A stretch of 64,000 nucleotides of DNA from Bacteroidota bacterium (GCA_016706865.1 JADJIS010000002.1:972768-1036767); one strand, 5' to 3'. Counted from the first letter of the stretch, positions 19,531 through 57,648 are shown. A program made the numbers and translations. The notes: a model not told the origin generated them from the sequence alone.

Positions 19531-19594
19531 ATGAAATTGGGTAAAAAAAAAGCAGGTTAAAATAAACCTGCCATTAAAGATAATAATAATTTTC

Positions 19595-20941
19595 TCACTC
19601 CAGATCACTCAGATCAAACCCATTCATAAAGCTTGTATCAAATACCCCAGCCCTGAATTTTGGATCACGCATGAGCTTTTTGTGGAAAGGAATGGTTGTT
19701 TTAATTCCCTCTACAATAAATTCATCTAAGGCTCTTTGCATTTTTAATATTACTTCTTCACGTGTGCGCGCCTTGCAAATTAATTTAGCGATCATGCTAT
19801 CGTAATAAGGTGGGATGGTATAGCCTGCATACACAGCAGTATCTACACGAACTCCATGTCCTTTCGGAGAATGGAAACTGGTTATTTTACCCGGACTCGG
19901 AGAAAAATTTCTTGTGGGATCCTCCGCATTTATTCTGCATTCCATTGCGTGTAATAACGGGAAATAATTTTTTCCGGAAATTTTTTCTCCCGTTGCAATT
20001 TTAATTTGTTCTTTAATTAAATCGAAATCTACCACTTCTTCCGTAACAGTATGTTCAACCTGAATACGTGTATTCATTTCCATGAAATAAAAATTCTTGT
20101 GTTTGTCAACAAGAAATTCTATTGTTCCTACACCTTCATATTTAATACTTTCTGCAGCTTTAACCGCTGCATCACCCATTTTTTTTCTCAGCTTCTCATC
20201 AAGAAATGGTGAAGGACTTTCTTCAACTAATTTTTGATGTCTTCTTTGTATGGAACAGTCTCTTTCACTTAAATGACAAGCTCTTCCATATTGATCACCC
20301 GCTATCTGAATTTCGATATGACGTGGTTCCTCAATATATTTTTCCATATATAAACCATCATTATTAAATGATGCTTTTGCTTCCATGCTTGCGGTATCAA
20401 ATGCACTTTCCACTTCATCCTCTTTCCAAACAATACGCATTCCTTTTCCACCACCACCGGCAGTAGCTTTCATGATAACCGGATATCCTATTTTTTTGGC
20501 TAATTTTTTAGCTTCAGCCACATCTTTTAATAATCCTTCACTTCCTGGAATTACAGGAACACCTGCTTTTTTCATGGTTTCCTTCGCTGTGATCTTATCG
20601 CCCATTTTGCGGATCTGATCAGCGGTAGGTCCAATAAATTTAATTCCGTATTTGGTGCATATCTCAGAAAAAGTTGCATTCTCACTTAAAAAACCATAAC
20701 CAGGATGTATGGCATCCGCATTGGTAATTTCCGCAGCGGCCATAATTTTCGGAATACTTAAATACGATTCTTTGGAAGATGGAGGTCCTATACAAACTGC
20801 TTCATCGGCAAAACGTACAGGCAAACTTTCTTTATCGGCAGTGGAATAAACAGCAACGGTTTTAATTCCCATTTCTTTTGCTGTTCTAATAACCCTTAAA
20901 GCTATTTCGCCGCGATTTGCTATTAGTATTTTTTTGAACAT
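19595..20941 (-). CDS. accC: Acetyl-CoA carboxylase biotin carboxylase subunit
   Basis: [20 protein letters not shown].. with ATP-grasp motifs across the full length. Confidence 0.97.
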
Positions 20942-23963: not shown

Positions 23964-24069
23964 GACCCAACTGTTTTAAAAAAGGCTGACAAAGGTAGTG
24001 AACAAAAGGCAAAAAGGGGAAAGATTTTGATTATATTGGTCAAAGAAGCATGAATTTGACCATTTTTAG

Positions 24070-24483
24070 TCAATTATCACCCTCTAAACGTGTAATTTCC
24101 GCTTTGATCTGCTCGGGAACAGGTGTTTTTTGATTTGTATTAAAATCATACATCACCAAAATATCTGTACCGATGGTAGACAATTCACCTTTTCCGCTAA
24201 AAATCTGATGCTGAAGCCCAAAACTGGTGTTTTTTATAAAAGAGACAGTAGTTTCAATTCTAATATTATCGGGATAATACAGTGGTTTTTTATATTCCAG
24301 CGCCGAGGATGCCAGCATAAATCCAACTTTATCCTCCTCCAGCATTTTCATTATCCCTATTTTCTCAACAAAATTGACCCGCGCAGATTGAATGTACTTG
24401 GCATACATCACATTATTAATATGACCAAACAGGTCCATTTCACTCCAATCAACTCTTAATGTTAAAATTATCGGTGTTGCCAT
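24070..24483 (-). CDS. Acyl-CoA thioesterase (4HBT/YbgC-like hotdog fold)
   Basis: 137 aa with an N-terminal V.W...D.FGHINNV.Y motif. Confidence 0.8.
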   Translation of the reverse strand: MATPIILTLRVDWSEMDLFGHINNVMYAKYIQSARVNFVEKIGIMKMLEEDKVGFMLASSALEYKKPLYYPDNIRIETTVSFIKNTSFGLQHQIFSGKGELSTIGTDILVMYDFNTNQKTPVPEQIKAEITRLEGDN

Positions 24484-24498
24484 TTGCTTGTTCTCCGA

Positions 24499-25551
24499 TT
24501 ATCTTTCTGCCTCAACGTAAGACCTTTTCAGGGGGTTTTTAGTGCTTTCAGCATATGAAACCCTTCGGTTACAGATGTCGATGGCAGCAAAAATGGCGTG
24601 TAGTATACTCTCTCCGGAAGCTTCATTCTTTCCCGCTATATCATAGGCAGTTCCATGGTCGGGCGAAGTGCGCACAAAAGGTAAACCGGCGGTAAAATTG
24701 ATACCACTGCCAAAACTCAGGCTTTTAAACCCTACCAGTCCCTGATCGTGATACATTGCGAGTATTGCGTCAAATTTCTGGTAATTTCCACTGCCAAAAA
24801 ATCCATCAGCAGCGAAAGGACCAACCACATATATTTTTTTGTCCTGAGCAGCTTTGATAGCAGGTATGATGATATTTTTTTCTTCATCACCAAGCAATCC
24901 TCCATCACCTGAATGTGGGTTCAATGCCAAAACTGCAATAGTAGGATTAAAAATAGCAAAATCCTGTTTCAAACTATGGTTAATAAGTTCGATCTTCTGC
25001 AGTATTTTTTCCTTTGTAATTGCTGCAGGAATTTCTTTTATTGCTAAATGATTTGTTACTAATCCAACACGTAAATTCTCGTTCATCAACAACATAACAC
25101 TTTCTTTATCTCCGGCCTTTGCATTAAAATATTCCGTATGACCGTGATAATTAAAACCACTTTGTTGCATGTTATTTTTATTGATAGGTGCAGTTACAAG
25201 TGCATCTATTTTTTTCGCTAAAAGATCTTGCGTAGCGGCTTCCAGGCTTATCAGTGCAGTCTTTCCGCCTATCGCAGTGTCTTGCCCGGGTTGTAAAATA
25301 ATATCATCGGTAATACAATTAATTATGTTCACCGATTTTGTATTAGATTGATCTGCATCAACACAAGTTGTATAATTAAATCCTTCTATATTGAACATTT
25401 TTTTATAAAAAGATAAAATTCTGTTTGATCCATAAATTACAGGAGTACATAATTTTAATATACGATTGTCGTCGAGTGCTTTTATGAGTACTTCGGGACC
25501 AATTCCATTAACATCTCCGAGTGTGAATCCTATCTTTAATTTATTGTCCAT
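24499..25551 (-). CDS. pdxA: 4-hydroxythreonine-4-phosphate dehydrogenase
   Basis: GDVNGIGPEVLIKA.., HTEYF, C-terminal SPDHGTAYDIAGK. Confidence 0.92.
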   Translation of the reverse strand: MDNKLKIGFTLGDVNGIGPEVLIKALDDNRILKLCTPVIYGSNRILSFYKKMFNIEGFNYTTCVDADQSNTKSVNIINCITDDIILQPGQDTAIGGKTALISLEAATQDLLAKKIDALVTAPINKNNMQQSGFNYHGHTEYFNAKAGDKESVMLLMNENLRVGLVTNHLAIKEIPAAITKEKILQKIELINHSLKQDFAIFNPTIAVLALNPHSGDGGLLGDEEKNIIIPAIKAAQDKKIYVVGPFAADGFFGSGNYQKFDAILAMYHDQGLVGFKSLSFGSGINFTAGLPFVRTSPDHGTAYDIAGKNEASGESILHAIFAAIDICNRRVSYAESTKNPLKRSYVEAER

Positions 25552-25646
25552 CGATGTAAAATTAGATAACCATCCGAAGATTTTTTAATCCTTATCACGA
25601 ATTAATGCGAAGTTTGCAGAATCCTCTAGTTCAAATATCAAAATAT

Positions 25647-26426
25647 ATGCAACACAGTTTTCACCATAAAAAATCGCTCGGCCAACATTTTTTAAAAAGT
25701 GAGGCCACTGCTTTGGAAATTGTGCAAGCTCTGAAACCCGAAAATGATACTATTCCGATTCTGGAAATTGGTCCGGGTCTGGGAATTTTATCAAAACACC
25801 TTTTACAGCTTCCAAACCCGATCTTTTTTAGTGAACTGGATGCAAGAGTAATTTCCTTTCTAGAGGAGGAGCTGAAAATTGATCCCTCCTATATTATATA
25901 TGGTGATTTTTTAAAATTGGATCTATCCAGATACTTTACCGGGGAATTTTTAGTGATAGGCAATTTCCCCTACAATATTTCCTCCCAAATACTTTTCAAA
26001 ATTCTTGATTTTAAGGAGCAAGTACCCGTTTTAACAGGCATGTTTCAAAAGGAAATGGCCAAAAGAGTGGTTGCAAAACATGGCAATAAAGAATATGGGG
26101 TGATAACGGTAATTGTTCAGGCCTATTACGATTGCACTTACTTATTTGAACTTCCACCCACCGCATTTGATCCTCCACCGAAAGTAAATTCCGCAGTAAT
26201 AAGACTTTCCAGAAAAGCGACGGCATTAAATTGTGATGAAAAACTGTTCAAACAAATAGTTAAAGCCGGCTTCAATCAAAGGAGAAAAAAACTTTCAAAT
26301 GCACTTTCGGGAATTCCGGGATCAAAAGAAAAACTAATAGCCCTTAACTTTGCCGACAAAAGGGCCGAACAACTGAGTGTTGAAGATTTTATTGAACTGA
26401 CCAAATCTTTTACAACTGTCCAATAA
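25647..26426 (+). CDS. rsmA: 16S rRNA (adenine1518/1519-N6)-dimethyltransferase
   Basis: KKSLGQHFL, EIGPGLG SAM motif, GNFPYNISS. I prefer the start at M15 (25647) over 25605. Confidence 0.92.
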   Translation: MQHSFHHKKSLGQHFLKSEATALEIVQALKPENDTIPILEIGPGLGILSKHLLQLPNPIFFSELDARVISFLEEELKIDPSYIIYGDFLKLDLSRYFTGEFLVIGNFPYNISSQILFKILDFKEQVPVLTGMFQKEMAKRVVAKHGNKEYGVITVIVQAYYDCTYLFELPPTAFDPPPKVNSAVIRLSRKATALNCDEKLFKQIVKAGFNQRRKKLSNALSGIPGSKEKLIALNFADKRAEQLSVEDFIELTKSFTTVQ

Positions 26427-27402: not shown

Positions 27403-27520
27403 CAAAAATATGATACTAAAGTGACGGGTGTATGACGGGAAAATTAATTAAAGGATATACTTTTGTTTTCAATTATTTACATAATTTAGCGACTCTTAAC
27501 AAATTTTAAATTTTCGGTCT

Positions 27521-30500
27521 ATGAATAAACTCCTTTACGCACTCGTTGTACTAGTTTTGTGTGTTGGTTCGGCAAATGCCCAATCCGGTGAGATTCAGGG
27601 AAAAGTTCTGAATGATAAAGCAGAGGGAATTCCCTTCGCGAATGTGGTTGCCTATAAAAATGGTGTACTTGTTACAGGTGCCACCACCGATTTTGATGGT
27701 AAATACGCAATTCCGGCATTGGAACCAGGTACCTATGAAATTGAAGCTTCCTATGTTGGATTAAAAAAACGTCTTACAGGTATTACCGTTTCTCAGGGTA
27801 TCGTTTTCCTCGACGACATTTTGCTGAGCGATAAGATACTCGATGTGGTTATTATTAAATACCAGGCTCCTTTGGTTGACAAAGGAAATACCAGTACCGG
27901 TGGTGTGGTTACAAAAGAAGACATCCAAAAAATAGCGACAAGGAACGTAACATCTATTGCAGCTACCAAAGAAGGAGTTTACCAAAGTGATGAAGGTGGT
28001 GGACTGAACATCAAGGGTTCACGTGGTGATGCAACGGAATATATTATAGATGGTGTTCGTGTTTCAGGTTCTCTTAAATTACCTCAGGATGCCATTGAAC
28101 AATTAGAGGTAATTACCGGTGGTGTGGATCCTAAATATGGTGATGCAACAGGTGGTTTTATCACTATTACAACAAGAGGTCCATCTAAAAATTACAATGG
28201 AAGTATGGAATTAGCTACTTCAGAAGTTTTGGATGACTATGGATATAACCTCGCAAGTTTATTTTTAACAGGACCTATCATCATGAAAGATAAAGGTACC
28301 GACTCTGCTCAGGCAAAATTCGGTTTCTTTATTGCGGGTGAATTAGAAATGGAAAGAGATCCCGATCCTTCCGCAATCGGAAATTTTCAGGTTAAGGATG
28401 ATGTGATGAATAGTTTAACTGTTGATCCATTGCGTCCATCGGTTACCGGTTTAGGATTTAATAAAAATTCAGAATTTATAACTGATGACGATATTGAAGC
28501 AATTCCTTACCGTTTAAATACAAGCAATCGCGGACTTGCTCTATCAACCAAATTAGATTATAAGTTTTCACGTAATACAAATCTTCAGGTGGGTTTATCT
28601 TGGAGAAATTTTCATGGCAATACTTATGCAAGAACATTTGCATTGTTTAATTCAGAAAATAATCCGGTAGATGATCAAAATACCTATCGCGGATATTTAA
28701 GATTTACTCAGCGTTTTCCAGAAAAAAAATCTGCATCAACAAAAGAATCCGTTGTAGGTAATGCTTATTACTCTATTCAATTGGATTATACCAAATTTAT
28801 TAGTACTCGTCAGGACGGCGATCATCAAATGAATCCGTTTGCTTATGGTTATATCGGACAATACAATACTTATAAAGCTCCCGTATATTTTTATACCACC
28901 GACGAAACTACCGGTTTAACCGGTTGGGTACTTGCAGGCTATGCTGATACTTTGGTGGAATTTACAGCAGGAGAAGCAAATCCTGAATTAGCGGAATATA
29001 CTACGGAGTATTATGAAGGTAGTGGAATTCCTCCATCCAGTTTATTTGATATTCAGTTAGGCGGTGGATTATTAAATGGAGAATCTTCTTCCTTATTCCT
29101 TTCTACATATAATATGTGGTATAATGCAGGGGTTCCATGGTTCAATTATTCAAAAACAAATGAAGACCAGTACAGTTTAACTTTTGGAGCATCTTTGGAT
29201 CTTAAAAACCCGAATGCAACAAATGTTTCTAAACACGCAATCGAATTTGGATTTGAATTTCAACAACGCATTGAACGCTTTTATGGTGTAAATCCAATTG
29301 GATTATGGACAATAGCACGTCAGCTTGCCAACAAACATATTTTAACACTTGATACTGATAATCCATTACTTATAATTGATGGCGAAGAATATACTTATGA
29401 TGAATATATAAGTACTCCAGGTTTATACTTCGGTGAATTTGATACAATTACTTACGACAGATTATCACTTGGCGATGATCAGGCATATTTTGATCAACAA
29501 TTAAGAAACAGATTAAATGAAATGGGAATGCCGGTTGGCGATCTTGATTATATTAATATTGATAATCTTCCTTTAGATGCATTTTCCATGGATCTGTTCA
29601 GTGCGGATGAATTATTAAATCAAGGTAGTTCATTAGTATTTTATAATGGATACGATTATTTAGGAAATACTGTAACAGGTGCTCCATCATTCAACGATTT
29701 CTTCACACAAAAAAATGATGAAGGTTTATACACTCGTCCTATCGATGCATTCCGCCCGGTTTATACTGCCGGATATATTCAGGATAGATTCAATTTTAAT
29801 GATATCGTATTCCGTGTTGGTGTTCGTGTTGACCGTTATGATGCAAATAGAAAAGTGTTGAAAGATAAATATTCATTATATGATGTTTATTCAACCTCTG
29901 AAGTGGATGGTTCTCTTAATCCAAATGGTGCACATCCAGGAAATATCGGAGAAGATTTTGTTGTTTATGTCGATGATTTTAATAGCCCTAGTCCTACAGT
30001 TTTAGGATATCGCGATGAAGATGTTTGGTATAATGCAGATGGTCAGGAAGTATCTGATCCAAACGTTATTGCAATTACATCTTCAACAGGAACAATTACA
30101 CCTTATGTAATAGATCCTGATGCAAATATTAAAGATGAAAATTTTGATCCGAATTCATCATTTGAAGATTATACTCCACAGATCACTTTAATGCCGAGAA
30201 TTGCATTCTCTTTCCCTATCTCTAAAGTGAAAGACAGAGAAGCATTATTTTTTGCTCATTATGATATCTTAACTCAACGCCCTCCAACAGGAACTTCTGC
30301 AAGTCCTGCAGATTATTATTTCTTCCTGGAAAATGCAGGTGCATTAATTGATAACCCGGATCTTAAACCTGAAAAAACAATTGACTATCAGGTTGGTTTC
30401 CAACAACAATTATCACCTTCATCTGTAATTAAAATTTCTGCTTTCTATAAAGAATTGAGAGATATGATTCAGGTAGTAAACGTACCTTATGCATATCCAC

Positions 30501-31237
30501 TTTCATATTCCACTTATGGTAACCTCGATTTTGGAACTGTTAAAGGTTTAACTGTTTCTTATGATATTGCACGCAGAACAAGAAACCTGAAATTATCTAC
30601 AAGTTATACATTACAGTTTGCTGATGGAACAGGTTCAAGTGCAACTTCACAGATCAACCTTGTTGGTGCCGGTCAACCGAACTTAAGAACAATTATTCCT
30701 TTATCTTACGACTCACGCCACAGTGTGAAATTAGTTCTTGATTATCGTTTCGACGATCCTGAAGGTGGTCAACCAACCTGGTTAAATGACGTTGGTTTGA
30801 ATACAACCTTTAATGCGCGTTCAGGAGAACCTTACACGCGTCAGGCAAATCCACTTGCAACGGCACAATTTGGTGCCAACACAAGAGCAACTTTGGAAGG
30901 TGGTATAAATGGTTCTCGTTTGCCTTGGCATTACAGAACTGATATTAAACTTGATAAAGCATTCACTTTTGGTATTGGTAAAAACGACAGGCCGATAAGC
31001 ATGGACGTTTACTTATGGGTGCAAAACCTGTTTGATAACAGAAACGTGATCGCTGTTTACGCTTATACCGGAAACCCATTGGATGATGGATATTTAGCAT
31101 CTGCAGAAGGTCAGCAAATTGTAAGCACAGTATTAGATGCTCAATCTTTTACTGATCTCTATAATATAAAAGTTCAAAACCCTGATAACTATAGCATTCC
31201 AAGAAGAATACGTCTTGGTGTTGCATTTGATTTCTAA
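27521..31237 (+). CDS. TonB-dependent-receptor-like outer-membrane protein with an N-terminal carboxypeptidase-regulatory-like domain
   Basis: Signal peptide, CarboxypepD_reg-like segment (GKVLND..PFANVV..TDFDGKY..LEPGTYEIEASYVG), plug-like region (IKGSRG..YIIDGV), long barrel, terminal ..GVAFDF. Confidence 0.75.
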   Translation: MNKLLYALVVLVLCVGSANAQSGEIQGKVLNDKAEGIPFANVVAYKNGVLVTGATTDFDGKYAIPALEPGTYEIEASYVGLKKRLTGITVSQGIVFLDDILLSDKILDVVIIKYQAPLVDKGNTSTGGVVTKEDIQKIATRNVTSIAATKEGVYQSDEGGGLNIKGSRGDATEYIIDGVRVSGSLKLPQDAIEQLEVITGGVDPKYGDATGGFITITTRGPSKNYNGSMELATSEVLDDYGYNLASLFLTGPIIMKDKGTDSAQAKFGFFIAGELEMERDPDPSAIGNFQVKDDVMNSLTVDPLRPSVTGLGFNKNSEFITDDDIEAIPYRLNTSNRGLALSTKLDYKFSRNTNLQVGLSWRNFHGNTYARTFALFNSENNPVDDQNTYRGYLRFTQRFPEKKSASTKESVVGNAYYSIQLDYTKFISTRQDGDHQMNPFAYGYIGQYNTYKAPVYFYTTDETTGLTGWVLAGYADTLVEFTAGEANPELAEYTTEYYEGSGIPPSSLFDIQLGGGLLNGESSSLFLSTYNMWYNAGVPWFNYSKTNEDQYSLTFGASLDLKNPNATNVSKHAIEFGFEFQQRIERFYGVNPIGLWTIARQLANKHILTLDTDNPLLIIDGEEYTYDEYISTPGLYFGEFDTITYDRLSLGDDQAYFDQQLRNRLNEMGMPVGDLDYINIDNLPLDAFSMDLFSADELLNQGSSLVFYNGYDYLGNTVTGAPSFNDFFTQKNDEGLYTRPIDAFRPVYTAGYIQDRFNFNDIVFRVGVRVDRYDANRKVLKDKYSLYDVYSTSEVDGSLNPNGAHPGNIGEDFVVYVDDFNSPSPTVLGYRDEDVWYNADGQEVSDPNVIAITSSTGTITPYVIDPDANIKDENFDPNSSFEDYTPQITLMPRIAFSFPISKVKDREALFFAHYDILTQRPPTGTSASPADYYFFLENAGALIDNPDLKPEKTIDYQVGFQQQLSPSSVIKISAFYKELRDMIQVVNVPYAYPLSYSTYGNLDFGTVKGLTVSYDIARRTRNLKLSTSYTLQFADGTGSSATSQINLVGAGQPNLRTIIPLSYDSRHSVKLVLDYRFDDPEGGQPTWLNDVGLNTTFNARSGEPYTRQANPLATAQFGANTRATLEGGINGSRLPWHYRTDIKLDKAFTFGIGKNDRPISMDVYLWVQNLFDNRNVIAVYAYTGNPLDDGYLASAEGQQIVSTVLDAQSFTDLYNIKVQNPDNYSIPRRIRLGVAFDF

Positions 31238-31258
31238 AATAGATTTAAACTGTTGAAT

Positions 31259-34200
31259 ATGTTAAAAAATAAACTGAATTGGATTTTACTTTTCACCTTG
31301 TTTGCAAGCATGAATGTTTATGCTAAGGAGAACATTGGGATCACAGGTAAACGTTTAAATACCTATGCTAAACTAACGGCTGGATGTTCTGATGCCACTA
31401 CACAAGTGGATCTGGATATTAATAACGTGCGCTGCCGTTTATTAGGTGCCGGCGATTTTTGGTGGGATCTGCAAAATGATGCCAAATATGAAATTCCAAA
31501 GGTTGACCCTTCCACAGGAACTATTCCTGTGAGCTCCAGTTTTGCCGGTGCTCTTTGGGTTGGTGGTATTGATGCGGGTGGTCAACTAAAGATCGCAGCT
31601 CAAACATACCGCCAAAGCGGGAACGACTTCTGGCCTGGACCGCTCGACAACGACGGAACCATTGAAGAAGCAACTTGTAATGCTTACGACCGTCACTGGA
31701 AAGTAAACAGAACAGAAATTGATGATTTTTTTGAAACGATATTAGAATATGGTGGAAATCCGGGTGTTTCTGAAACACCGACCGAAATTCCGGAAAATAG
31801 AATTCCAACTATTATCCGCGAATGGCCAGGTTTAGGAAATCCTATGGCAACCGGTAAAGCAGGTGAATTATTAAATGTTACAAGAGACCTTGGCCCTTTC
31901 GTAGATGTAAATTTTAACGGTTACTATGAACCACAATTTGGAGAATATCCGGATATTGATGGTGATCAGGCAATTTTCTGGGTTTATAATGATAAAGGAA
32001 ATATTCACACTGAATCAGGTGGTGATGCAATTGGTTTAGAAATTCAGGCACTCGCTTTTGGATTTACAACTAACGATGAAATTAACGACATGACCTTTTA
32101 TCGCTACAAGGTTACCAATTTTGCAACTACTTCACTTGACTCTACTTATTTCGGTCAGTGGGTGGATTCAGATCTTGGAGCTTATGACGACGACTGGGTT
32201 GGATGCGATACTTTACTTTCTTTAGGTCTATGTTATAATGGTGACCTTGTAGATGGGCCTACTTCTCCAAATTACGGACCTAATCCTCCGATCTTTGGAA
32301 CAGACTTTTTTCAAGGTCCAATTAAATATACTTTGGATGATGGTGTTATTACTGACAGTGTGAGATTGGGTATGTCGTCATTCCTATATTATGATAATAA
32401 CTTCTTAATTACCGGTAATCCTGAGGTTGCGGCACATTATTATGGTTATATGTCAGGAACCTGGAAGGATGGTTCTCCATTTACATATGGCGGAAACGGA
32501 TATGGTGGAACTGAACGCACAAACTTCATATTCCCAAGCGATCCTTCCGATCCTACGGGATGGAGCGAGTGTACTGAAGGTAATACTGCTTTCGACAGAC
32601 GATATTTACAATCATCAGGTCCTTTCAGATTATTACCTGGTGCAAAAAATGAGATAGTAATGGGTGCAATATGGGTTCGCCCTCCGGTATCAGGTGGATG
32701 TCAAACCTCTTTTGATCTTGCTCGTTTGGCAGATCAAAAAGCACAGGCTTTATTTGATGCGAATTTCCAACTTATTGGTGGTCCTGATGCACCGGATCTA
32801 GGTATCCGCGAATTGGATCAGGCTTTAGTTCTATCATTAACAAATGGACCAACTTCAAATAATGTGGGTGAAGCTTATGTAGAAACAGATCCGTTGATAG
32901 TGAGTATTGTTAGTCAGTTACCTGATAGCATTATTGAAGCAAATCCTGGTATCACTGATACAACATATGGTTTTCAGGGATATAAGATCTATCAATTGGA
33001 AAATGCTCAGGTTTCTCCTTCCGAATATAGTGATGTAACCAAGGCGAAATTAATTTTCCAGAGTGATCTTAAAGACGGTATTGATAAGATCGTGAATTAT
33101 AGTTTCGACGTTACGATAGGCGCAGATGTTCCTGAATTAATGGTAGAAGGATCAGATGAGGGTGTTAAACACACTTTCTATGTTACCGATGATGCATTTG
33201 CAGCGGGGAATTCCAAACTTATCAATTTCAAAACATATTATTTTTCAGTAGTATCCTATGCGCATAACAACTTTTTGCAATATGATGTTACCAACCCGAA
33301 TTCTCAGAAACGACCTTATCTGGAAGGTAGGAAGAATATAAAAATCTATACTGCAATTCCGCACAAACCGGATCCTGAAAATGGAGGAATGGTTTTAAAT
33401 GCTGAATATGGTGACGGACCTGATATTACAAAAATTGAAGGTGTTGGAAATGGAGGCAACTTCCAGGAATTAACTGATGCTTCTGTAGAAACAATTCTTA
33501 GCAATTCATTTATGCTGGCTCCTGTTTACAAAGGACGTAAAGCTCCTATAGATGTAATGGTTTATGATCCTGTTCGTTTACCTGCCGCGGAATTTGAATT
33601 AAAAATGGTGGATTCAACAAACAGCAATCCATTGAATTCTGACAGTACCTGGTGGGTGCTTACTAATCTTACAGATGGTAGTTTCATTGTTTCTGATTTC
33701 CCTATAAACTTTGTGAACGAACAGATCATTCCTGAATGGGGATTATCGGTTACTGTTCATAATGTTCAAAACCCTGGAGGCCAAACAGTTAGTGGTTCTT
33801 TTATCGAAAAAGAAGAAAATAATGGTTTAATAGGTGCAACGTTTACTTACGATGATCCAAATAAACAATGGTTAACAGGAGTTCCTGATAATGACGGTAC
33901 CATTTTAGACTGGATTCGTTCAGGTATTGCTGATGGACTTTTTGCCGATGTATTACCTAACCCGGATGAAAATCAGGTGTTTGAAGGAATACTTGGTGGA
34001 ACCTGGGCTCCAACAGAATTGGTAGCTTTTAACACGGCTGATGTTCCTTATATGCCATTGCGTTCTATTGTTGGTTTACGCCCTCAAATTCCGATTGAAG
34101 AAACGATCGGCGTTGATGTGATTTTCACTCCAGACAGATCGAAATGGTCAAAATGTATAGTTGTGGAAAGTGGAGAAATTACAACTATCAGAGATGAATT

Positions 34201-35137
34201 AAAACTTGATTTACGTCAATTACCTTCTATGGATAGTACGGGAGAACTTTTAGGCGATGGCTCTATGGGTTACTCTTATTTCCCTGGTTATGCTATTGAT
34301 GTGGAAACAGGAACAAGGGTAAATATTTTCTTTGGAGAGGATGGTGGCTCAGGGCAACCTGATGGAAGAGGTAAAGATATGGTGTGGAATCCTTCTTCTA
34401 CTTTCTTTGATCAAACTGGGATTCCAATATATGGTGGTAAACATTATTTATATGTTACTAAAACCAAATACGACGAAGGTAAAAATATGCACGATTCATT
34501 ACAGTGGATCGGCGGGTCAAAACCGGAAACCTCTTATTATAAAGATGTTTTTGTGAACGTGGTTTGGATAACAATGCCATTCCTTCAACCGGGTTATTCT
34601 TCAGTTGTAGGTGAGCCTATGGAAATTCCTACTACCACTACTGTCCAGTTGAGAGTAACTAAACCATACTTGTCGCAATTTATTACAGGAGAGAATCTTG
34701 GTTTTCCGCTATATCGTTTCTCAACGGCCACTCTAGCTCCGGGTGTTAATGATACGGAGGTAGCTAGCAGCGCACTTGATCTTATACGCGTTGTTCCAAA
34801 TCCTTATTATGCATACTCTGCTTATGAGACGAGTTCGATCGATAATAATGTCAAGATCACAAATCTACCTCCACAATGTACTGTATCTATATTTACTTTG
34901 GACGGAACTTTAGTTAGAAGGTTTGAACGCGATGTTAGTGCCGATAATACAGCCGGTGGTGAGTTGAATGCTAAGGAATCGAATACTGATACCGCACTGG
35001 ATTGGGATCTAAAAAATGAGAAAAATGTTCCTTTGGCCAGCGGTATGTATATAGTGCATATTGATGCGGGACCTCTTGGAGAAAAAACAATTAAATGGTT
35101 TGGCGTAATGAGACCAATAGATCTGGATACTTTCTAA
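31259..35137 (+). CDS. Large (about 1290 aa) secreted hypothetical protein with a T9SS-CTD-like C-terminus
   Basis: Signal peptide (LLFTLFASMNVYA). No catalytic motif recognised. C-terminus VVPNPYYAYS..KITNLP..VSIFTLDGTLVRRF..GMYIVHIDAG..KTIKWF. The ORF-track start at 31253 is TTG; the ATG is at 31259. Confidence 0.6.
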   Translation: MLKNKLNWILLFTLFASMNVYAKENIGITGKRLNTYAKLTAGCSDATTQVDLDINNVRCRLLGAGDFWWDLQNDAKYEIPKVDPSTGTIPVSSSFAGALWVGGIDAGGQLKIAAQTYRQSGNDFWPGPLDNDGTIEEATCNAYDRHWKVNRTEIDDFFETILEYGGNPGVSETPTEIPENRIPTIIREWPGLGNPMATGKAGELLNVTRDLGPFVDVNFNGYYEPQFGEYPDIDGDQAIFWVYNDKGNIHTESGGDAIGLEIQALAFGFTTNDEINDMTFYRYKVTNFATTSLDSTYFGQWVDSDLGAYDDDWVGCDTLLSLGLCYNGDLVDGPTSPNYGPNPPIFGTDFFQGPIKYTLDDGVITDSVRLGMSSFLYYDNNFLITGNPEVAAHYYGYMSGTWKDGSPFTYGGNGYGGTERTNFIFPSDPSDPTGWSECTEGNTAFDRRYLQSSGPFRLLPGAKNEIVMGAIWVRPPVSGGCQTSFDLARLADQKAQALFDANFQLIGGPDAPDLGIRELDQALVLSLTNGPTSNNVGEAYVETDPLIVSIVSQLPDSIIEANPGITDTTYGFQGYKIYQLENAQVSPSEYSDVTKAKLIFQSDLKDGIDKIVNYSFDVTIGADVPELMVEGSDEGVKHTFYVTDDAFAAGNSKLINFKTYYFSVVSYAHNNFLQYDVTNPNSQKRPYLEGRKNIKIYTAIPHKPDPENGGMVLNAEYGDGPDITKIEGVGNGGNFQELTDASVETILSNSFMLAPVYKGRKAPIDVMVYDPVRLPAAEFELKMVDSTNSNPLNSDSTWWVLTNLTDGSFIVSDFPINFVNEQIIPEWGLSVTVHNVQNPGGQTVSGSFIEKEENNGLIGATFTYDDPNKQWLTGVPDNDGTILDWIRSGIADGLFADVLPNPDENQVFEGILGGTWAPTELVAFNTADVPYMPLRSIVGLRPQIPIEETIGVDVIFTPDRSKWSKCIVVESGEITTIRDELKLDLRQLPSMDSTGELLGDGSMGYSYFPGYAIDVETGTRVNIFFGEDGGSGQPDGRGKDMVWNPSSTFFDQTGIPIYGGKHYLYVTKTKYDEGKNMHDSLQWIGGSKPETSYYKDVFVNVVWITMPFLQPGYSSVVGEPMEIPTTTTVQLRVTKPYLSQFITGENLGFPLYRFSTATLAPGVNDTEVASSALDLIRVVPNPYYAYSAYETSSIDNNVKITNLPPQCTVSIFTLDGTLVRRFERDVSADNTAGGELNAKESNTDTALDWDLKNEKNVPLASGMYIVHIDAGPLGEKTIKWFGVMRPIDLDTF

Positions 35138-35148
35138 AACCGAAACAC

Positions 35149-36210
35149 ATGACAAAAATGAAAAAAATACTAGTTACCTTATTTATAGCGATTCCGGCAG
35201 TGCTTATGGCAGGAAACCCTGACCGTTCTGGAGAGGCGGGTGCATCAGAATTACTGATTAATCCCTGGGCTCAAAGTTCCGGATGGTATGGATTGAATAT
35301 TGCATCAGTTAGAGGTGTTGAAGCACCGAATATCAATGTTGCCGGTATGTCGTTCTTAGAAGGCAGTCAAATAGAATTTTGCAGGACCGAATGGTTAGTT
35401 GGATCTGAGATCAGTTTAACAACTTTCGGATTTGCCCAAAAGGTTGGCGATGGAGCTATTGGCCTAACACTTACATCCATGGATCTGGGTGAAATTGAGG
35501 TAACAACAACAGAAAGTCCGGACGGAACCGGTGCATACTATAAACCGCGTTTCTCAAATCTCGGATTATCATATTCCAGAAAATTTGCTGATTATTTGAG
35601 CGGTGGTGTAACCGTAAGGGTAATAACAGAAAGTATTTCAGATGTAAAGGCCATTGGAGTTTCCATGGACGTTGGAATACAGTATATTACTGGTCCAGCG
35701 GAACATCCCGAAAAGATCAAAATGGGTATTGCTTTAAAAAATATTGGAACTCCAATGAAATTCAGCGGAGATGGTCTCAGTTTCAGAGGAAATGTTCCGG
35801 ATGGTGATTACTCCATGACTCAGGATTTCAGGTCAGAAACTTTTGAATTGCCTTCCTTATTGACCATCGGTCTGTCGTACGATTTCTATTTTGGTCAGGA
35901 ACATAGGTTGACAGCAGTAGGAAATTTCGTTTCTAATTCTTTCTATAAAGATCAGTTTGGAGCAGGTTTGGAATATGCATTAAAGGTGAAAAATACCGAA
36001 ATGTTCATGTTGCGCACAGGTTACAGATACGAAAGCGGTATTACAAACGACGTAGATAGAACTTCAGCTTCCACAGGTATAGCAGCAGGTTTAACATTCC
36101 AATATCCTATCGACAAATTAGGAAATAATCTTGTAGCATTAAATTATTCTTACAGAACTTCACATCAATACGAAGGTTCCCATTGTTTCGGACTTCGTTT
36201 AAGTTTCTGA
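35149..36210 (+). CDS. PorV/PorQ-like outer-membrane beta-barrel protein
   Basis: Signal peptide from MTKMKKIL. The N-terminal GASELLINPWAQSSGWYG motif resembles the PorV/PorQ family signature as I remember it. Alternating beta pattern, terminal ..GLRLSF. Confidence 0.5.
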   Translation: MTKMKKILVTLFIAIPAVLMAGNPDRSGEAGASELLINPWAQSSGWYGLNIASVRGVEAPNINVAGMSFLEGSQIEFCRTEWLVGSEISLTTFGFAQKVGDGAIGLTLTSMDLGEIEVTTTESPDGTGAYYKPRFSNLGLSYSRKFADYLSGGVTVRVITESISDVKAIGVSMDVGIQYITGPAEHPEKIKMGIALKNIGTPMKFSGDGLSFRGNVPDGDYSMTQDFRSETFELPSLLTIGLSYDFYFGQEHRLTAVGNFVSNSFYKDQFGAGLEYALKVKNTEMFMLRTGYRYESGITNDVDRTSASTGIAAGLTFQYPIDKLGNNLVALNYSYRTSHQYEGSHCFGLRLSF

Positions 36211-36233
36211 TTAAATACTTTTTATAACTTTGC

Positions 36234-36270
36234 GGAAACGTTTCTCAACAGGAAACGTTTCTTTTTTTTT
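36234..36270 (+). terminator. Intrinsic terminator (10-11 bp stem, 5-nt loop, T9 tract)
   Basis: GGAAACGTTTCT caaca GGAAACGTTTC followed by TTTTTTTTT. It lies 24 nt after the PorV-like stop codon. Confidence 0.85.
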
Positions 36271-36287
36271 ATTTTAAAAACAATGTC

Positions 36288-42690: not shown

Positions 42691-42852
42691 CTTTTTGTGA
42701 GCTTTGAACGGTCTCAGAATTTTAATTTGGTTGTCACGCAACGCAGTATCTCCACATTGTCGTCTTTCGAGGGTTGTCTAAGAATCACAACTCAAATTCA
42801 TGAAAGTCAAATTTGTTTTTCAACCTGTACTGGTTGATTGGTCGAATAGCTA

Positions 42853-42860
42853 TATCTTTG
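42853..42860 (+). promoter_or_regulatory. Bacteroidota-type -7 promoter box (TAnnTTTG) upstream of the polysaccharide locus
   Basis: TATCTTTG lies 21 nt upstream of the ATG at 42881. This supports the shorter start for the export protein. Confidence 0.5.
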
Positions 42861-42880
42861 CACGAAATTTTAAAAAAAGT

Positions 42881-45253
42881 ATGAAGAAGATTTCTTCGTT
42901 GGGCTTGATCTTATTAGTTGCAAGTACCATTTTTACCCTTAATGCACAAACGCCTGTTGTACCAGCTGTATCATCAGGAACACTTGAATCTTTGGGGTTC
43001 GACCAGACTGAGATTGATGCCATTATGGAAACTACCGGCACTTCAACTTCAACTGCCGTGGAATCTGCCACAATGATACAGGATGCGCAACAGTCGGCTG
43101 TTGATGCTGCCAATAGCCAAATAAACACCCTGGCACCAAATACTTCAGTTATTGCATCTCCTGCTGTTCAGGAGGCTATTGCAGAAGTTATCGGTGATGA
43201 ACCTGCCCCTGCTCCAATTTGGGGTCAGGACTTTTTTCGCAGCGGTTCGATAGACCTGTTTGAAAAAGTGCCAAACTCTAAGGTTGGAGACAACTATATT
43301 CTAGGCGAAGGCGACATGATAACCATTGCAGTATGGGGTTATGCTTATTATAATTCCAATTTTACGATCAATGAGGAAGGGTATATAACAACCATAGAAG
43401 TTGGTAGAATTTATTTGAAAGGGCTTACCTTCAGTGCCGCCAAACAGTTGCTGCGTCAGCGTTTTGCCTCGGCATTTGATCTTACCAATTCAAAATTTGA
43501 TGTTACACTTACCTACTCCAAAAGCATAAAAGTAAATATCGTTGGAGAGGTTGTAAATCCTGGATCTTATAATATTTCCTCCTTTAATACTGCTTTCAAT
43601 GCACTTGTTGCAGCTGGCGGTGTAACAGATATTGGTTCTGTGAGAAATATTCAGATAAAAAGAAATAATCGGGTGATACAAACTTTGGATGTGTATCAAT
43701 TCCTGATGAATCCGGGTGCAACGGATGATACTTACCTGGAAGCTAACGATTACATCGTGGTAAACGGGATAGGCAGAGTAGTGCAGGTAGAGGGAGAAGT
43801 AAACAGACCGACAAAATACGAATTGGTGCCCGGTGAAAACCTCAATGAACTTATTTATTACGCCGGCGGGTTAAAATCAACTGCTTACAAACGCAACGTT
43901 TCCATTTTCCGTTATGTTAACAACGAAAATGTTGTTCTCGATTTCAATCTGGATAGCGTAGAAAGAGAAAAAATTAATTTTCCGTTGATAAATGGAGACA
44001 GAATAGTTTTCTCTAAAATTCCGGAAGTAATTGAAAATATTGTTACCATTCAAGGAGCTTGTCGTTTTCCAGGGAACTATCAACTTACTGCAGATATGCG
44101 TATTTCCGACCTGATTGAAAAAGCAAAAGGTTTGAATTATGATGCATACACCGACCGTGCTTATTTAATTCGCAAGGATGCTAAAATGAATGATGTTTAT
44201 ATTCCTTTCGAATTGGATGAAGTATTGGCAAATTCAAATTCTCCTTTCAATTTTAAATTAGCAAAATTTGATGTTATTGATATATTTTCAAAGGAAGAAT
44301 TCAGAGAAACTTTTAATGTGTCAATAGATGGTGCGGTGAAAATGCCTGGATCATTTCCATATTATCAGCAAATGACCTTAAAGGATCTTCTTTATTATTC
44401 GGGCGGATTAAAGGTAGAGGCTGCAAATAATAAAATAGAGGTTTCCCGTATCGTAAATTTTAGTGATGCGAGCAATCAAAATGAACCTACCAGAGTTGTT
44501 GTGCAATCAGTTTCAGTGGATAAAGCACTGGATGTGGATGATGCAGCAAATTCGTTTGTGCTTCAACCTTACGATCAGGTTTATGTAAGAACTACACCTG
44601 AATTTGAATATCAGAAAAATATTACCATTTTGGGTGAGGTTAAATATCCCGGAGTTTATACTTTATTATCGCGCACAGAAACTTTGGCAGATGTAATTGA
44701 AAGAGCAGGCGGTTTAACACAATGGGCTTATGCAGAAGGAACAACAATGAACAGATTGGATGTTACTTCTACCCTGGTTTTTCTTGGAAAGGCAATGGAA
44801 AATCCCGAATCGAAATATAATTATGTAATGCGGGCAGGTGATATTGTTACTGTTCCTAAACAAGGTGATCTTGTTGCATTAAAGGGAGAAATAAAATATC
44901 CGTTTATCGGTGATCCGGGAACTGTTGTAGTTCCTTTTGAAAAAGGTAGATCCGCTCGTCATTTTATCAAAAAATATGGTAAGAATTTCGATGATGATGC
45001 CAAAAGAAGTGAAACTTATGTAGTTGAACCAAATGGTTATGTTCACAGAACACATAATTTCCTATTTATACATTTTTATCCTAGAGTAAAAGTAAAAGGA
45101 AGCCAAATTGTAGTTCCACAGAAACCGGAAGAGAAAATTGAGATCGAACAAAATGTTGAACCAAAGGAACCATTTGATTGGAATACTTTTGCAACTACAT
45201 TTAGTGCAGGTATCTTGAGTTTTGCAACAATTTATGTTTTGTTACAACGCTGA
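42881..45253 (+). CDS. Polysaccharide export protein (Wza-like, multiple SLBB domains)
   Basis: Signal peptide from MKKISSLGL. Poly_export motif (YILGEGDMITIAVWG) followed by repeated SLBB-like modules (..GEV..PG.Y...). C-terminal TM segment. Confidence 0.8.
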   Translation: MKKISSLGLILLVASTIFTLNAQTPVVPAVSSGTLESLGFDQTEIDAIMETTGTSTSTAVESATMIQDAQQSAVDAANSQINTLAPNTSVIASPAVQEAIAEVIGDEPAPAPIWGQDFFRSGSIDLFEKVPNSKVGDNYILGEGDMITIAVWGYAYYNSNFTINEEGYITTIEVGRIYLKGLTFSAAKQLLRQRFASAFDLTNSKFDVTLTYSKSIKVNIVGEVVNPGSYNISSFNTAFNALVAAGGVTDIGSVRNIQIKRNNRVIQTLDVYQFLMNPGATDDTYLEANDYIVVNGIGRVVQVEGEVNRPTKYELVPGENLNELIYYAGGLKSTAYKRNVSIFRYVNNENVVLDFNLDSVEREKINFPLINGDRIVFSKIPEVIENIVTIQGACRFPGNYQLTADMRISDLIEKAKGLNYDAYTDRAYLIRKDAKMNDVYIPFELDEVLANSNSPFNFKLAKFDVIDIFSKEEFRETFNVSIDGAVKMPGSFPYYQQMTLKDLLYYSGGLKVEAANNKIEVSRIVNFSDASNQNEPTRVVVQSVSVDKALDVDDAANSFVLQPYDQVYVRTTPEFEYQKNITILGEVKYPGVYTLLSRTETLADVIERAGGLTQWAYAEGTTMNRLDVTSTLVFLGKAMENPESKYNYVMRAGDIVTVPKQGDLVALKGEIKYPFIGDPGTVVVPFEKGRSARHFIKKYGKNFDDDAKRSETYVVEPNGYVHRTHNFLFIHFYPRVKVKGSQIVVPQKPEEKIEIEQNVEPKEPFDWNTFATTFSAGILSFATIYVLLQR

Positions 45254-45289
45254 TAATAATCAATAAAGCAAAAAACGAGAACAAAGATT

Positions 45290-46435: not shown

Positions 46436-46467
46436 CACTGAGGTGTAATTAAAGAATTTGTTGGAAA

Positions 46468-47940: not shown

Positions 47941-47943
47941 AAC

Positions 47944-51492: not shown

Positions 51493-51493
51493 T

Positions 51494-52372: not shown

Positions 52373-52373
52373 A

Positions 52374-53711: not shown

Positions 53712-53728
53712 ATTTAAATTTGTAAAGC

Positions 53729-57645: not shown

Positions 57646-57648
57646 ACA

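Follow-up and report, generated by a model that had tools for sequence, protein, structure and literature searches.

A conserved Bacteroidota operon encodes a TonB-dependent transporter, a putative T9SS-exported protein and a PorV/PorQ-family barrel that may act together in uptake

Introduction

Why should a large receptor-like outer-membrane barrel, a giant secreted protein and a barrel related to PorV and PorQ be encoded side by side, and do the three work together? The question is raised by three genes, here called g1, g2 and g3, in a 64,000-nucleotide stretch of Bacteroidota DNA that was analysed as a whole (the window). A first-pass annotation had read them as a dedicated surface-display or secretion-anchoring complex. 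The layout of the locus, its conservation and each of the three proteins are considered here in turn, and possible functions of the triad are then weighed.

Results

The three genes form one operon

The genes are co-directional on the (+) strand, with g1 at 27521..31237, g2 at 31259..35137 and g3 at 35149..36210, and the ORF listing and a reading of the junctions place gaps of only 21 and 11 nt between them. They encode a predicted TonB-dependent transporter of 1238 aa, a secreted protein of 1292 aa from an uncharacterised family and a predicted PorV/PorQ-family (FadL-like) outer-membrane barrel of 353 aa, respectively. All three begin with what reads as a Sec-type signal peptide without a lipobox. 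The most likely start of g2 is the ATG at 31259, which is favoured because the orthologues begin at MLKNK and which reproduces the 21-nt gap after g1; the 1294 aa given in the first-pass annotation are obtained only from a TTG upstream, at 31253. For g3 the ATG at 35149 (11-nt gap) is most likely, and its orthologues begin at the same site.

Downstream of g3, a terminator scan and RNA folding located an intrinsic terminator at 36234..36271 (+), formed by GGAAACGTTTCT-CAACA-GGAAACGTTTCT and a following run of nine T. The stem has 12 pairs (36234-36262) and the fold reaches −14 kcal/mol (z = −3.2), a stability that 0 of 200 shuffled sequences equalled. With its short gaps and single strong terminator, the triad is one operon, and the gene layout first proposed stands. 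Upstream of g1, the candidate Bacteroidota-type −7 promoter element TACTTTTG (27458..27465, +) was read from the sequence; it lies 55 nt ahead of the g1 start, inside a 118-nt intergenic region, and fits TAnnTTTG, the consensus of the −7 element in Bacteroidetes promoters. A −33 TTTG was not evident in this intergenic region, and a sigma-70 scan returned fewer sites than were found in shuffles. TACTTTTG is thus put forward as the g1 promoter element with low confidence.

The triad is conserved among housekeeping genes

Of 58 related loci that could be evaluated, 51 have g1, g2 and g3 in the same order and on the same strand, at identities as low as 40%; chance comes nowhere near explaining such adjacency. 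The arrangement recurs when the genes of a 43%-identical relative are called independently, and the upstream neighbours vary between loci while the three genes stay. The synteny check thus shows the triad to be co-conserved. Pairwise distances among the three proteins correlate with r = 0.81-0.86, compared with r = 0.55-0.76 against greA or HIT; shared phylogeny and the short length of these control proteins confound the comparison. The triad is broadly conserved and often present once per genome, and extra copies of g2 exist without additional g1 or g3. Loci carrying it bear the labels Chitinophagales, Flavobacteriales and Saprospiraceae; the 80 nearest species that have it are all uncultured MAGs.

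The neighbours of the triad are housekeeping genes (rsmA, 2-hydroxyacid dehydrogenase, greA, HIT and ruvC), unlike those of variable nutrient loci, and a search of the window found no enzyme, regulator, inner-membrane transporter or riboswitch accompanying it. All three proteins are strongly and broadly conserved, as would be expected more of a core envelope function than of a substrate-specific PUL. A T9SS is present in the same genome: PorW/SprE (525 bits) is encoded 20 kb from the triad, and the window also encodes an M1 peptidase with a canonical T9SS C-terminal domain (CTD).

g1 has the features of a TonB-dependent transporter

g1 is composed of a signal peptide, a CarboxypepD_reg domain (residues 25-95; 48.2 bits in Pfam), a plug (residues 129-212; PF07715, 37.2 bits with a cutoff of 23.9) and a barrel region of ~1000 residues, which agrees with the domains and the length of 1238 aa first assigned to it. 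The plug model is matched by 15 of 15 orthologues. A profile built from these 15 sequences matches PiuA and CirA in the plug (E = 1e-11 to 1e-10) and in the first strands of the barrel, the SusC homologue 9hfj in the N-terminal extension and, weakly, PhuR in the barrel (E = 0.028). PF00593 is matched by six of the 15 orthologues, at best with E = 2.7e-15; the copy in the window gives no match to it at E <= 1. A TonB-box-like strand, DVVIIKY (residues ~109-115), separates the N-terminal extension from the plug, and an alternating hydrophobic strand of this kind (DVVIIKY, EVVVEY and similar) is positionally conserved among the orthologues. The protein ends in the C-terminal signal ...RLGVAFDF, and every orthologue terminates in F. 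Judged by the plug, the TonB-box-like strand and the PF00593 matches of its orthologues, g1 is predicted to be a genuine TonB-dependent transporter.

Assignment of g1 to the SusC/RagA subfamily was rejected, as no signature model in NCBIfam matched at E <= 0.01; none of the other curated barrel families in Pfam or NCBIfam was matched either. A SusCD-type PUL was rejected as well: the downstream gene has neither SusD nor any other Pfam domain, and no CAZyme or regulator is present, so the earlier statement that this is not a classical PUL holds.

g3 falls into a third clade of the PorV/PorQ family

g3 passes the PorV/PorQ family model NF033709 with 138.8 bits (cutoff 90), aligned over model positions 4-326 of 326, and the profile of its orthologues finds F. 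johnsoniae PorV (6h3i_F) in the PDB with E = 1.5e-16. PorV proper was rejected, with 58.4 bits for NF033710 against a required 250 and an alignment of the N-terminal half alone, and so was PorQ proper, with 54 bits for NF033711 against 220. The mature protein has 332 residues, compared with 335 positions in the PorQ model, and its N-terminus, GN(P/K)DRxGxAGA, is conserved in the orthologue alignment. These profile scores place g3 in a third clade of the family, apart from the PorV and PorQ equivalogs; its first description as PorV/PorQ-like is right for the family but extends to neither equivalog.

The body of g2 is large and beta-rich and belongs to no characterised family

The 1292 residues of g2 are divided into a signal peptide (1-23, ending ...NVYA/KENIG), an N-terminal beta-supersandwich (~24-505), an Fn3-like region (~506-700), a beta-rich central region of ~450 residues without a PDB match (~701-1165) and the CTD. 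None of 14 family members has a Pfam match, and neither the single sequence nor a profile finds a sequence match in the PDB; g2 belongs to no characterised family, and the first-pass annotation had recognised no catalytic motif in it. The family itself is large, with > 4300 homologues found and 7133 clusters at 50% identity matched by the N-terminal half. Across loci g2 is 40-55% identical, and a 14-sequence alignment contains ~200 invariant positions; the N-terminal half carries ~100 invariant positions, many of which are acidic or histidine. A possible lipobox occurs in only 11 of 249 full-length relatives; a BamH-like surface lipoprotein was rejected, since no lipobox cysteine follows the signal peptide.

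AF2 models of g2 reached pLDDT values of 83 and 87. In Foldseek searches the N-terminal half matched N-domains of GH116, GH94 and dextran dextrinase with E = 1e-5, at a low TM of 0.2-0.26 over at most ~530 aligned columns and with non-catalytic accessory domains as the targets. From the known architecture of these enzymes, the matched part is presumably their N-terminal supersandwich. The model of g2 is almost all beta and therefore lacks a helical catalytic domain; given the low TM and the lack of an (alpha/alpha)6 catalytic domain after the supersandwich, the models argue against a GH116/GH94/GH15-like enzyme, and this candidate was rejected. The predicted carbohydrate-binding fold of the N-domain only suggests a glycan as ligand, and the body of g2 may hold one or more new carbohydrate-binding or carbohydrate-active folds.

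The g2 C-terminal domain resembles those retained by PorZ and PorU

The CTD (residues 1166-1292; 34754..35137, +) is a divergent, T9SS type-A-like beta-sandwich. Among NCBIfam models it scores 24.4 bits with the PorZ CTD, 20.4 bits with the PorU CTD and 21.1 bits with TIGR04183 (cutoff 23), an HMM that the first-pass annotation had named as a check; Pfam Por_Secre_tail (PF18962) gives 13.4 bits, below its cutoff of 27. The model of the domain matches PorZ (5m11) in Foldseek with E = 5e-6 and 25% identity, and further matches are to PorU and to the SprA-PorV-bound CTDs of NucA and RemZ. The CTD-like tail first noticed on g2 is thus seen in both sequence and structure. Of the features of a T9SS type A cargo, g2 has a Sec signal peptide and its genome encodes a T9SS; NCBI annotates the g2 homologue P0064 as a T9SS type A sorting domain protein. 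Full-length PorZ or PorU was rejected, as only the last ~100 residues align (18.6 against 260 and 14.7 against 420). Although divergent, the g2 CTD is of T9SS type, with that of PorZ as its closest counterpart, and it lies nearer to the retained CTDs of PorZ and PorU than to the generic model.

A variable insertion of ~30 aa interrupts the CTD, which also carries the conserved terminal extension KWFGVMRPIDLDTF. Its terminal tail, KWFGVMRPxDLDxF, is strongly conserved among the 249 g2 relatives and extends past the end of the PorZ and PorU model matches. The domain is the slowest-evolving part of g2, with a mean p-distance of 0.397 compared with 0.392 for greA and 0.592 for the central domain of g2. 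Between g2 paralogues of the same genome the CTDs are 82-94% identical, against 56-81% for the other domains.

Discussion

The points on which the first-pass annotation could have failed, namely co-conservation of the three genes, the PorV/PorQ model match of g3 and the uncharacterised nature of g2, all hold. The function suggested here is a different one. We propose that the operon builds an outer-membrane nutrient-uptake unit, with g1 as the gate and g2 as a capture protein docked on g3, a reading to which we give a little less than an even chance. g2 would be exported by the T9SS. Ordinary T9SS cargo has its C-terminal sorting domain removed; g2 probably keeps it. The CTD, together with the KWFGVMRPxDLDxF tail, would dock non-covalently on g3 as its cognate barrel, much as PorZ is retained on PorQ, and PorU on PorV. 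The large beta-sandwich body of g2, kept at the cell surface beside g1, would capture the ligand and pass it to the gate, and would thereby do for g1 the job of a SusD-type or BtuG-type lipoprotein. The proposal thus presumes import rather than export through g1, contacts of g2 with both g3 and g1, and a physical complex. Precedents exist for cognate PorV-like barrels that protect and hold CTDs (reviewed in PMC10202324) and for contact between PorV and a receptor, C. hutchinsonii PorV being co-purified with a TonB-dependent receptor (PMC8564354). The occurrence of this gene order in other uptake loci, described below, is a further precedent. Several observations speak against the proposal: the lack of accompanying enzyme, regulator or inner-membrane transporter genes and the housekeeping setting, the CTD scores below the TIGR04183 and PF18962 cutoffs, the missing PF00593 match of the g1 copy in the window, and the weak fold match of the g2 N-domain to accessory domains.

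As g1 is, by its features, a genuine TonB-dependent transporter, an uptake gate with a T9SS-anchored partner is likelier than a secretion-anchoring complex. The idea of surface display fits only the g2-g3 pair of the triad; the plug and TonB-box-like strand of g1 point to uptake. We suggest, more tentatively, that the triad could represent a widespread and unrecognised class of machine, in which a TonB transporter is combined with a never-processed T9SS substrate that its extended CTD, with the conserved tail, holds in a dedicated third-clade PorV/PorQ barrel. If so, Bacteroidota would have an alternative to SusCD that does without a lipoprotein, and the position of the triad among housekeeping genes and its slow evolution would point to a ubiquitous substrate that is taken up or processed, as opposed to a niche glycan.

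The triad might instead be a T9SS accessory resembling the attachment complex and acting on other cargo in processing, anchoring or quality control, with no import, which we regard as unlikely. Here g2 would be a PorZ/PorU-like protein on a PorQ-like g3, and g1 a receptor-type barrel of the PorF kind. The CTD of g2 is nearest to those of PorZ and PorU, the two components of the T9SS in which this domain is retained, but outside this domain g2 resembles neither the beta-propellers of PorZ nor the C25 peptidase of PorU, and the equivalog models fail widely. g3 is of PorQ size (332 against 335) and of the same family. In P. gingivalis, secretion depends on PorF, a receptor-like barrel, and in C. 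hutchinsonii a TonB-dependent receptor resembling PorF is pulled down with PorV; however, PorF lacks a plug (PMC8564354), whereas g1 combines a plug with a TonB-box-like strand, as an active transporter does. Broad conservation, frequent occurrence once per genome among housekeeping genes without a regulator, and PorW/SprE 20 kb away would suit such an accessory; against it, the triad is absent from the lists of T9SS components in the reviews consulted, its 80 nearest carrier species are all uncultured MAGs, and the same architecture is found within substrate-specific uptake loci.

It is also rather improbable that g2 is a surface coat, an adhesin or an S-layer-like protein displayed through g3, with g1 co-transcribed but independent in function, or no more than a membrane platform. 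Tannerella exports S-layer proteins of similar size by its T9SS. g2 is large and beta-rich, with sandwich and Fn3-like domains, its extra copies come without extra g1 or g3, and Foldseek gave weak matches to the Epf adhesin, the Fn3 domains of C5a-peptidase and the S-layer protein 7ptp, the last with a probability of only 0.30. Coats and adhesins usually evolve fast, however, whereas g2 holds 40-55% identity and its ~200 invariant positions, and strict adjacency to a transporter with gaps of 11-21 nt is hard to square with independent functions. Finally, g1 is most improbable as a TonB-dependent exporter running in reverse to release or position g2 or another product: it shares the CarboxypepD_reg, plug and large-barrel layout of Myxococcus Oar, a CarboxypepD_reg-containing receptor required for PopC secretion, and import-linked genes are absent nearby, but g2 bears a putative T9SS export signal of its own in a genome that has a T9SS, g1 matches none of the other curated barrel families in Pfam or NCBIfam, and the Oar system has no place for a partner of the PorV family.

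The proposed uptake unit shares parts with several known systems. In the PorZ-PorQ and PorU-PorV pairs of P. gingivalis, a T9SS-exported protein keeps its CTD and sits on a cognate 14-strand barrel of the PorV/PorQ family (PMC10202324). The CTD of g2 is nearest to those of PorZ and PorU by HMM and structure, and g3 is of the same barrel family; in contrast, the body of g2 is unrelated, g3 fails the PorV and PorQ equivalogs, and g2 has the extra tail. g2 and g3 are moreover adjacent and in an operon with a TonB-dependent transporter, unlike PorZ and PorQ, whose genes are, to our knowledge, non-adjacent in P. gingivalis. In BamG-BamH, the FadL/PorV-fold barrel BamG grips the surface-exposed BamH through extracellular loops (PMC12611786, PMC12578637). 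BamH, however, is a lipoprotein and not a T9SS cargo, whereas g2 has no lipobox; bamG and bamH lie apart (Fjoh_1412 and Fjoh_0823), whereas g2 and g3 adjoin, and g3 scores as PorV/PorQ family. PorF (PG0534) and CHU_1606 are likened to g1 by description, as outer-membrane receptor-type barrels tied to PorV or to secretion, but they are of ~91 kDa, compared with 138 kDa for g1, and the plugless PorF differs from the plugged g1 (PMC8564354).

The complex had been thought undescribed as a unit. The order of its genes has already been drawn in the alginate locus of Rhodothermus marinus, where a TonB receptor, a T9SS-CTD protein and a PorV/PorQ-family protein follow one another and the last gene is 1056 nt long, against 1062 nt for g3 (PMC9530828). 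A receptor is followed by a sorting-domain protein in the xylan locus Rmar_1070-1072 of the same species (PMC6987092), and T9SS sorting-domain and porV/Q genes appear in a figure of Porphyromonas hmu heme-uptake loci (PMC12106395). These papers list the genes and do not analyse the arrangement as a unit. The parallel is one of gene architecture only. The Rhodothermus and Porphyromonas strings lie in substrate-specific loci with enzymes and regulators, unlike the triad, and their middle proteins are much smaller than g2 (726 aa in the alginate locus).

The job proposed for g2 is most familiar from SusC/SusD and BtuB/BtuG, in which, as here, the gene for a presumed surface partner adjoins that for a large TonB-dependent transporter whose N-terminal extension is of the CarboxypepD_reg type; the extension of g1 resembles that of the SusC homologue 9hfj. 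The differences are that g2 is neither a lipoprotein nor SusD-like, that g1 is outside SusC/RagA and that, unlike at SusCD-type loci, no CAZymes or regulators lie near the triad. SusC/SusD and BtuB/BtuG use a lipid anchor, whereas g2 would reach the surface through the T9SS and be retained there by a separate barrel.

Organization and genomic context of the triad

Three co-directional genes, g1 (27521–31237, 1238 aa in the reading-frame listing), g2 (31259–35137, 1292 aa), and g3 (35149–36210, 353 aa), follow one another on the plus strand, separated by gaps of only 21 nt (g1/g2) and 11 nt (g2/g3). Both g2 and g3 most likely start at an ATG codon. A g2 length of 1294 aa results from an alternative TTG start two codons upstream; the ATG at 31259 is favored because the orthologues' N-terminus, MLKNK, matches the ATG-equivalent position. 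Downstream of g3, a terminator composed of a perfect 12-bp hairpin and nine following T residues (36234–36271, plus strand) folds at −14 kcal/mol, a stability equaled by none of 200 shuffled sequences in RNA folding. The reading frames, junctions, and folding results confirm the layout described in the first-pass annotation, namely three co-directional genes with 21- and 11-nt gaps and a closing terminator. A candidate −7 element, TACTTTTG, which fits the Bacteroidetes −7 consensus, lies within the 118 nt upstream of g1. A scan for sigma-70 promoters found sites to be rarer than in shuffled sequence and is thus uninformative for Bacteroidota. No riboswitch or other RNA leader was detected upstream of g1 when the whole 64-kb window was searched with Rfam at the gathering score, and the window has no tRNA genes. 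In the window, the triad has no accompanying gene for a regulator, a CAZyme, or an inner-membrane transporter, nor a riboswitch.

The window also encodes an 883-aa TPR lipoprotein-like PorW/SprE (5640–8291, minus strand) that scores 525 bits with NF052312 (cutoff 250), which shows that the organism possesses a type IX secretion system (T9SS). An M1-family metallopeptidase (10268–12214, plus strand) ends in a canonical T9SS type A sorting domain (Por_Secre_tail, 43 bits; TIGR04183, 29.9 bits), in contrast to the divergent C-terminal domain (CTD) of g2 from the same genome.

Several other features lie nearby. A 606-aa protein (17788–19608, minus strand) has an OmpA/Pal-like peptidoglycan-binding domain at residues 52–156 and ∼450 further residues that match no family. 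The cumulative GC skew reaches its minimum at ∼24000–26000, and gene orientation flips from mainly minus to mainly plus between pdxA (24499–25551, minus strand) and rsmA (25605–26426, plus strand); this may be a mere divergent gene boundary. A long run of plus-strand genes for polysaccharide export and biosynthesis (42800–58593) encodes a Wza-like Poly_export/SLBB protein, an MBOAT acyltransferase, a MatE/Polysacc_synt flippase, and a GT2 glycosyltransferase, together with a weak, sub-threshold match to DUF4915. The cluster also includes four separate sulfotransferase genes (50578–51492, 51494–52372, 54728–55687, and 57649–58593), which suggests that its product is a sulfated exopolysaccharide.

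The g1 transporter and the g3 barrel

The g1 protein has a signal peptide and, as its N-terminal extension, a CarboxypepD_reg domain; its Plug domain scores above threshold. Where a TonB box is expected there is a short strand of alternating hydrophobic residues, and the C-terminus reads ...RLGVAFDF. A profile of 15 g1 orthologues matches the plugs of PiuA and CirA in the PDB as well as the N-terminal extension of a SusC homologue; the PF00593 barrel model is reached by six of the 15. No match to the SusC/RagA subfamily was obtained for g1 with NCBIfam. By these sequence criteria, g1 is a TonB-dependent transporter outside the SusC/RagA subfamily.

The g3 protein aligns from end to end with the PorV/PorQ family model of NCBIfam and scores above its cutoff (138.8 versus 90 bits), which upholds the earlier suggestion of a PorV/PorQ-like barrel. 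It falls below both NCBIfam equivalog cutoffs (58 versus 250 bits for PorV, 54 versus 220 for PorQ). Since the family model is passed but both equivalogs are failed, g3 represents a third clade of FadL-like PorV/PorQ barrels. It has the size of PorQ, and a profile of its orthologues finds F. johnsoniae PorV with an E-value of 1.5e-16.

The g2 protein: an unclassified body and a PorZ-like C-terminal domain

The g2 protein carries a Sec signal peptide without a lipobox. None of 14 diverse family members contains a Pfam family, no PDB sequence match to g2 was found with either the single sequence or a profile, and searching the separate domains against Pfam at E ≤ 10 returned noise only. The first-pass annotation had recognized no catalytic motif in g2. 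As far as sequence comparison can tell, the g2 body belongs to no curated family searched (Pfam-A, NCBIfam). A longer variant of the family (P0156/P0267, 1687 aa) bears the NCBI name 'YCF48-related protein', from which it follows that some lineages carry an additional domain.

Because full-length g2 exceeds the prediction size limit, its structure was modeled as two overlapping halves with 55-sequence alignments (pLDDT 83 and 87). The N-terminal half is modeled as a β-supersandwich (N-domain, residues 24–505) followed by an Fn3-like domain. Its best structural matches in the PDB are GH116, GH94, GH149, and GH161 enzymes and a dextran dextrinase, with E-values of ∼1e-5 and TM-scores of only 0.2–0.26; we take the matched parts to be the N-terminal supersandwich domains of these enzymes. 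As the model is almost entirely β, the supersandwich is not followed by a helical catalytic domain. The g2 protein does contain many invariant acidic residues. The central region of ∼450 residues is confidently folded and β-rich in the model and has no significant structural match in the PDB by Foldseek.

The last ∼130 residues of g2 (CTD, residues 1166–1292) form a β-sandwich in the model, in line with the CTD-like tail noted at first reading. The best structural match is the CTD of PorZ (5m11, E = 5e-6, 25% identity); next come NucA and RemZ, whose CTDs are captured in structures of the SprA-PorV translocon, and after them PorU. In HMM searches, the domain scores highest with PorZ and PorU, whose models it matches at their CTD ends, and it reaches 21.1 bits with TIGR04183, just under the cutoff of 23. 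One g2 homologue is already labeled by NCBI as a T9SS type A sorting-domain protein. The g2 CTD is best described as a borderline T9SS type A domain. It contains a variable insertion of ∼30 residues and is extended past the canonical domain end by a family-specific tail, K-W-F-G-V-M-R-P-x-D-L-D-x-F, which in g2 itself ends in WFGVMRPIDLDTF. Of 249 full-length relatives, 239 keep the K of this tail, 232 the R, and 236 the D, and 221 have F or Y as their last residue.

The CTD is the slowest-evolving part of g2 across 50 genomes, with a mean p-distance of 0.397, compared with 0.592 for the central region and 0.392 for greA. Between two g2 paralogues of the same genome, the CTDs are 82–94% identical and the other domains 56–81%. 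That the CTD is the most constrained part of a protein of ∼1300 residues fits a permanent docking element rather than a signal that is cut off.

Conservation and distribution of the triad

Homologues of g2 gave more than 4300 matches in 90% clusters. At 50% identity, the clusters matched by the N-terminal half number 7133, of which 2436 lie below E = 1e-30, and a scan of one genome per species yielded at least 592 confirmed stretches matching g2. All 78 loci fetched derive from MAGs, mostly labeled Chitinophagales, with some Flavobacteriales, Saprospiraceae, and 'Bacteroidia'; no cultured carrier was present among the 80 best loci at the species level or among 10 cluster representatives at greater distance.

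The three genes are adjacent, in the same order and on the same strand, in 51 of the 58 loci in which both flanks could be judged, down to 40% identity, as co-conservation of the triad would have it. A relative at 43% identity shows the same arrangement by independent gene calls with Pfam labels. Downstream of the triad are usually greA and a HIT gene; upstream are often, not always, rsmA and a 2-hydroxyacid dehydrogenase. The analysis shows that g1, g2, and g3 form an operon that is inherited together as a unit in T9SS-bearing Bacteroidota.

The seven exceptions comprise two loci with a second g2 after g3, one with an insertion between g1 and g2, and four solitary g2 paralogues. The g1-g2-g3-g2' arrangement, with a second full-length g2, occurs in L032 (660–11984), L039 (2488–12020), and also L040 (6441–16088), where the central domain is the most divergent between copies (61–69% identity) and the CTD the least (83–94%). 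Solitary g2 genes, with no adjacent g1 or g3, are found in L048 (7908–11900), L056 (7869–11903), L062 (7947–11918), and L063 (7851–11882); at least one of the four comes from a MAG that also holds a full triad, L048 sharing its MAG with the full triad L031. The C-terminal tail is kept in all exceptional g2 copies. In L056 and L062, a protein of 807–808 aa is encoded ∼1.4–1.6 kb upstream of g2, with an opposite-strand gene in between; its N-terminus resembles a CarboxypepD_reg extension and its C-terminus is OMP-like (...LDF).

Pairwise distances of g1, g2, and g3 intercorrelate at r = 0.81–0.86, above their correlation with greA or HIT, which is weak support for co-evolution since shared ancestry and the shortness of the control proteins confound the comparison.

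A possible function in TonB-dependent uptake

In the triad, the gene for a TonB-dependent transporter stands beside one for a secreted multi-domain β protein that ends in a PorZ-like T9SS domain and one for a barrel of the PorV/PorQ family. We tentatively favor, at slightly less than an even chance, a function in uptake: g2 would be exported by the T9SS, would retain its CTD and be held by it on g3, and would work with g1 by capturing ligand at the surface, in the place that lipoproteins of the SusD/BtuG type take for other Bacteroidota transporters. The 'surface-display or secretion-anchoring complex' of the first-pass annotation survives in part: the g2-g3 pair would fit surface display, but g1 is read here as a probable uptake transporter. 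The main weakness of the uptake reading is that the locus is unlike a nutrient island. A core envelope role is also conceivable, since all three proteins are unusually conserved.

The triad could instead be an accessory of the T9SS itself, a module resembling the attachment complex. The PorZ/PorU-like CTD of g2, the housekeeping location, and the broad conservation speak for such a role, but g1 is a plug-bearing transporter and g2 is unlike PorZ or PorU outside the CTD, and we regard this as unlikely. Somewhat less likely still is that g2 is a displayed coat or adhesin and g1 an independent transporter, against which stand the slow evolution of g2 and the strict adjacency of the three genes. 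That g1 is an Oar-like exporter is very improbable, as g2 has a T9SS signal of its own.

TonB-dependent transporters of Bacteroidota are thought to be paired with surface lipoproteins such as SusD and BtuG, and the T9SS is thought either to release its cargo or to bind it covalently to lipopolysaccharide. If the uptake reading is correct, the triad would connect both of these hallmark systems of Bacteroidota through a private PorV-like anchor, extend the 'retained CTD' principle of PorZ-PorQ beyond the secretion machine, and account for uninterpreted gene strings in uptake loci of Rhodothermus and Porphyromonas. The g2 family, with ∼1300 residues, thousands of sequence clusters, and no Pfam-A or NCBIfam model match, and its conserved C-terminal tail offer concrete targets for curating the family, solving structures, and engineering surface display.

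Comparison with known systems

Three known systems were considered and rejected. The triad is not a PorU/PorV operon (porU and porV are adjacent in Flavobacterium), as a C25 domain is absent from g2 and only its CTD agrees with the PorU model. It is not a classical polysaccharide utilization locus, as had been recognized at first reading: SusD, CAZymes, and a regulator are absent. BamG/BamH offers a structural analogy to g3-g2 only, since the genes for the two proteins are not linked, BamH belongs to the lipoproteins (PMC12611786, PMC12578637), and g3 falls by score into the PorV/PorQ family.

Precedents exist for the individual principles. PorZ binds PorQ via a retained CTD and PorU keeps its CTD on PorV, and cognate PorV-like barrels have been proposed to shield CTDs from cleavage (reviewed in PMC10202324). 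PorV of C. hutchinsonii co-purifies with a TonB-dependent receptor (PMC8564354). In the alginate locus of R. marinus, the gene after that of a TonB-dependent receptor encodes a protein with a T9SS sorting domain, and the next one, of 1056 nt, a member of the PorV/PorQ family (PMC9530828); the xylan locus has a receptor and then a sorting-domain protein (PMC6987092), and a figure of Porphyromonas heme-uptake loci shows T9SS sorting-domain and porV/Q genes (PMC12106395). All three papers give these genes without interpretation, and a literature search for the triad as a described unit returned figure-legend mentions only; the gene order has been drawn previously but never analyzed. The parallel between these loci and the triad is one of gene content and order, and such gene strings in uptake loci, like the co-purification of PorV with a receptor, support the uptake reading. 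The combination is real, widespread, and uncharacterized, and each of its principles has a precedent: the triad would work as a hybrid of PorZ-PorQ anchoring and the transporter-partner pairing of SusCD, yet it is a member of neither system.
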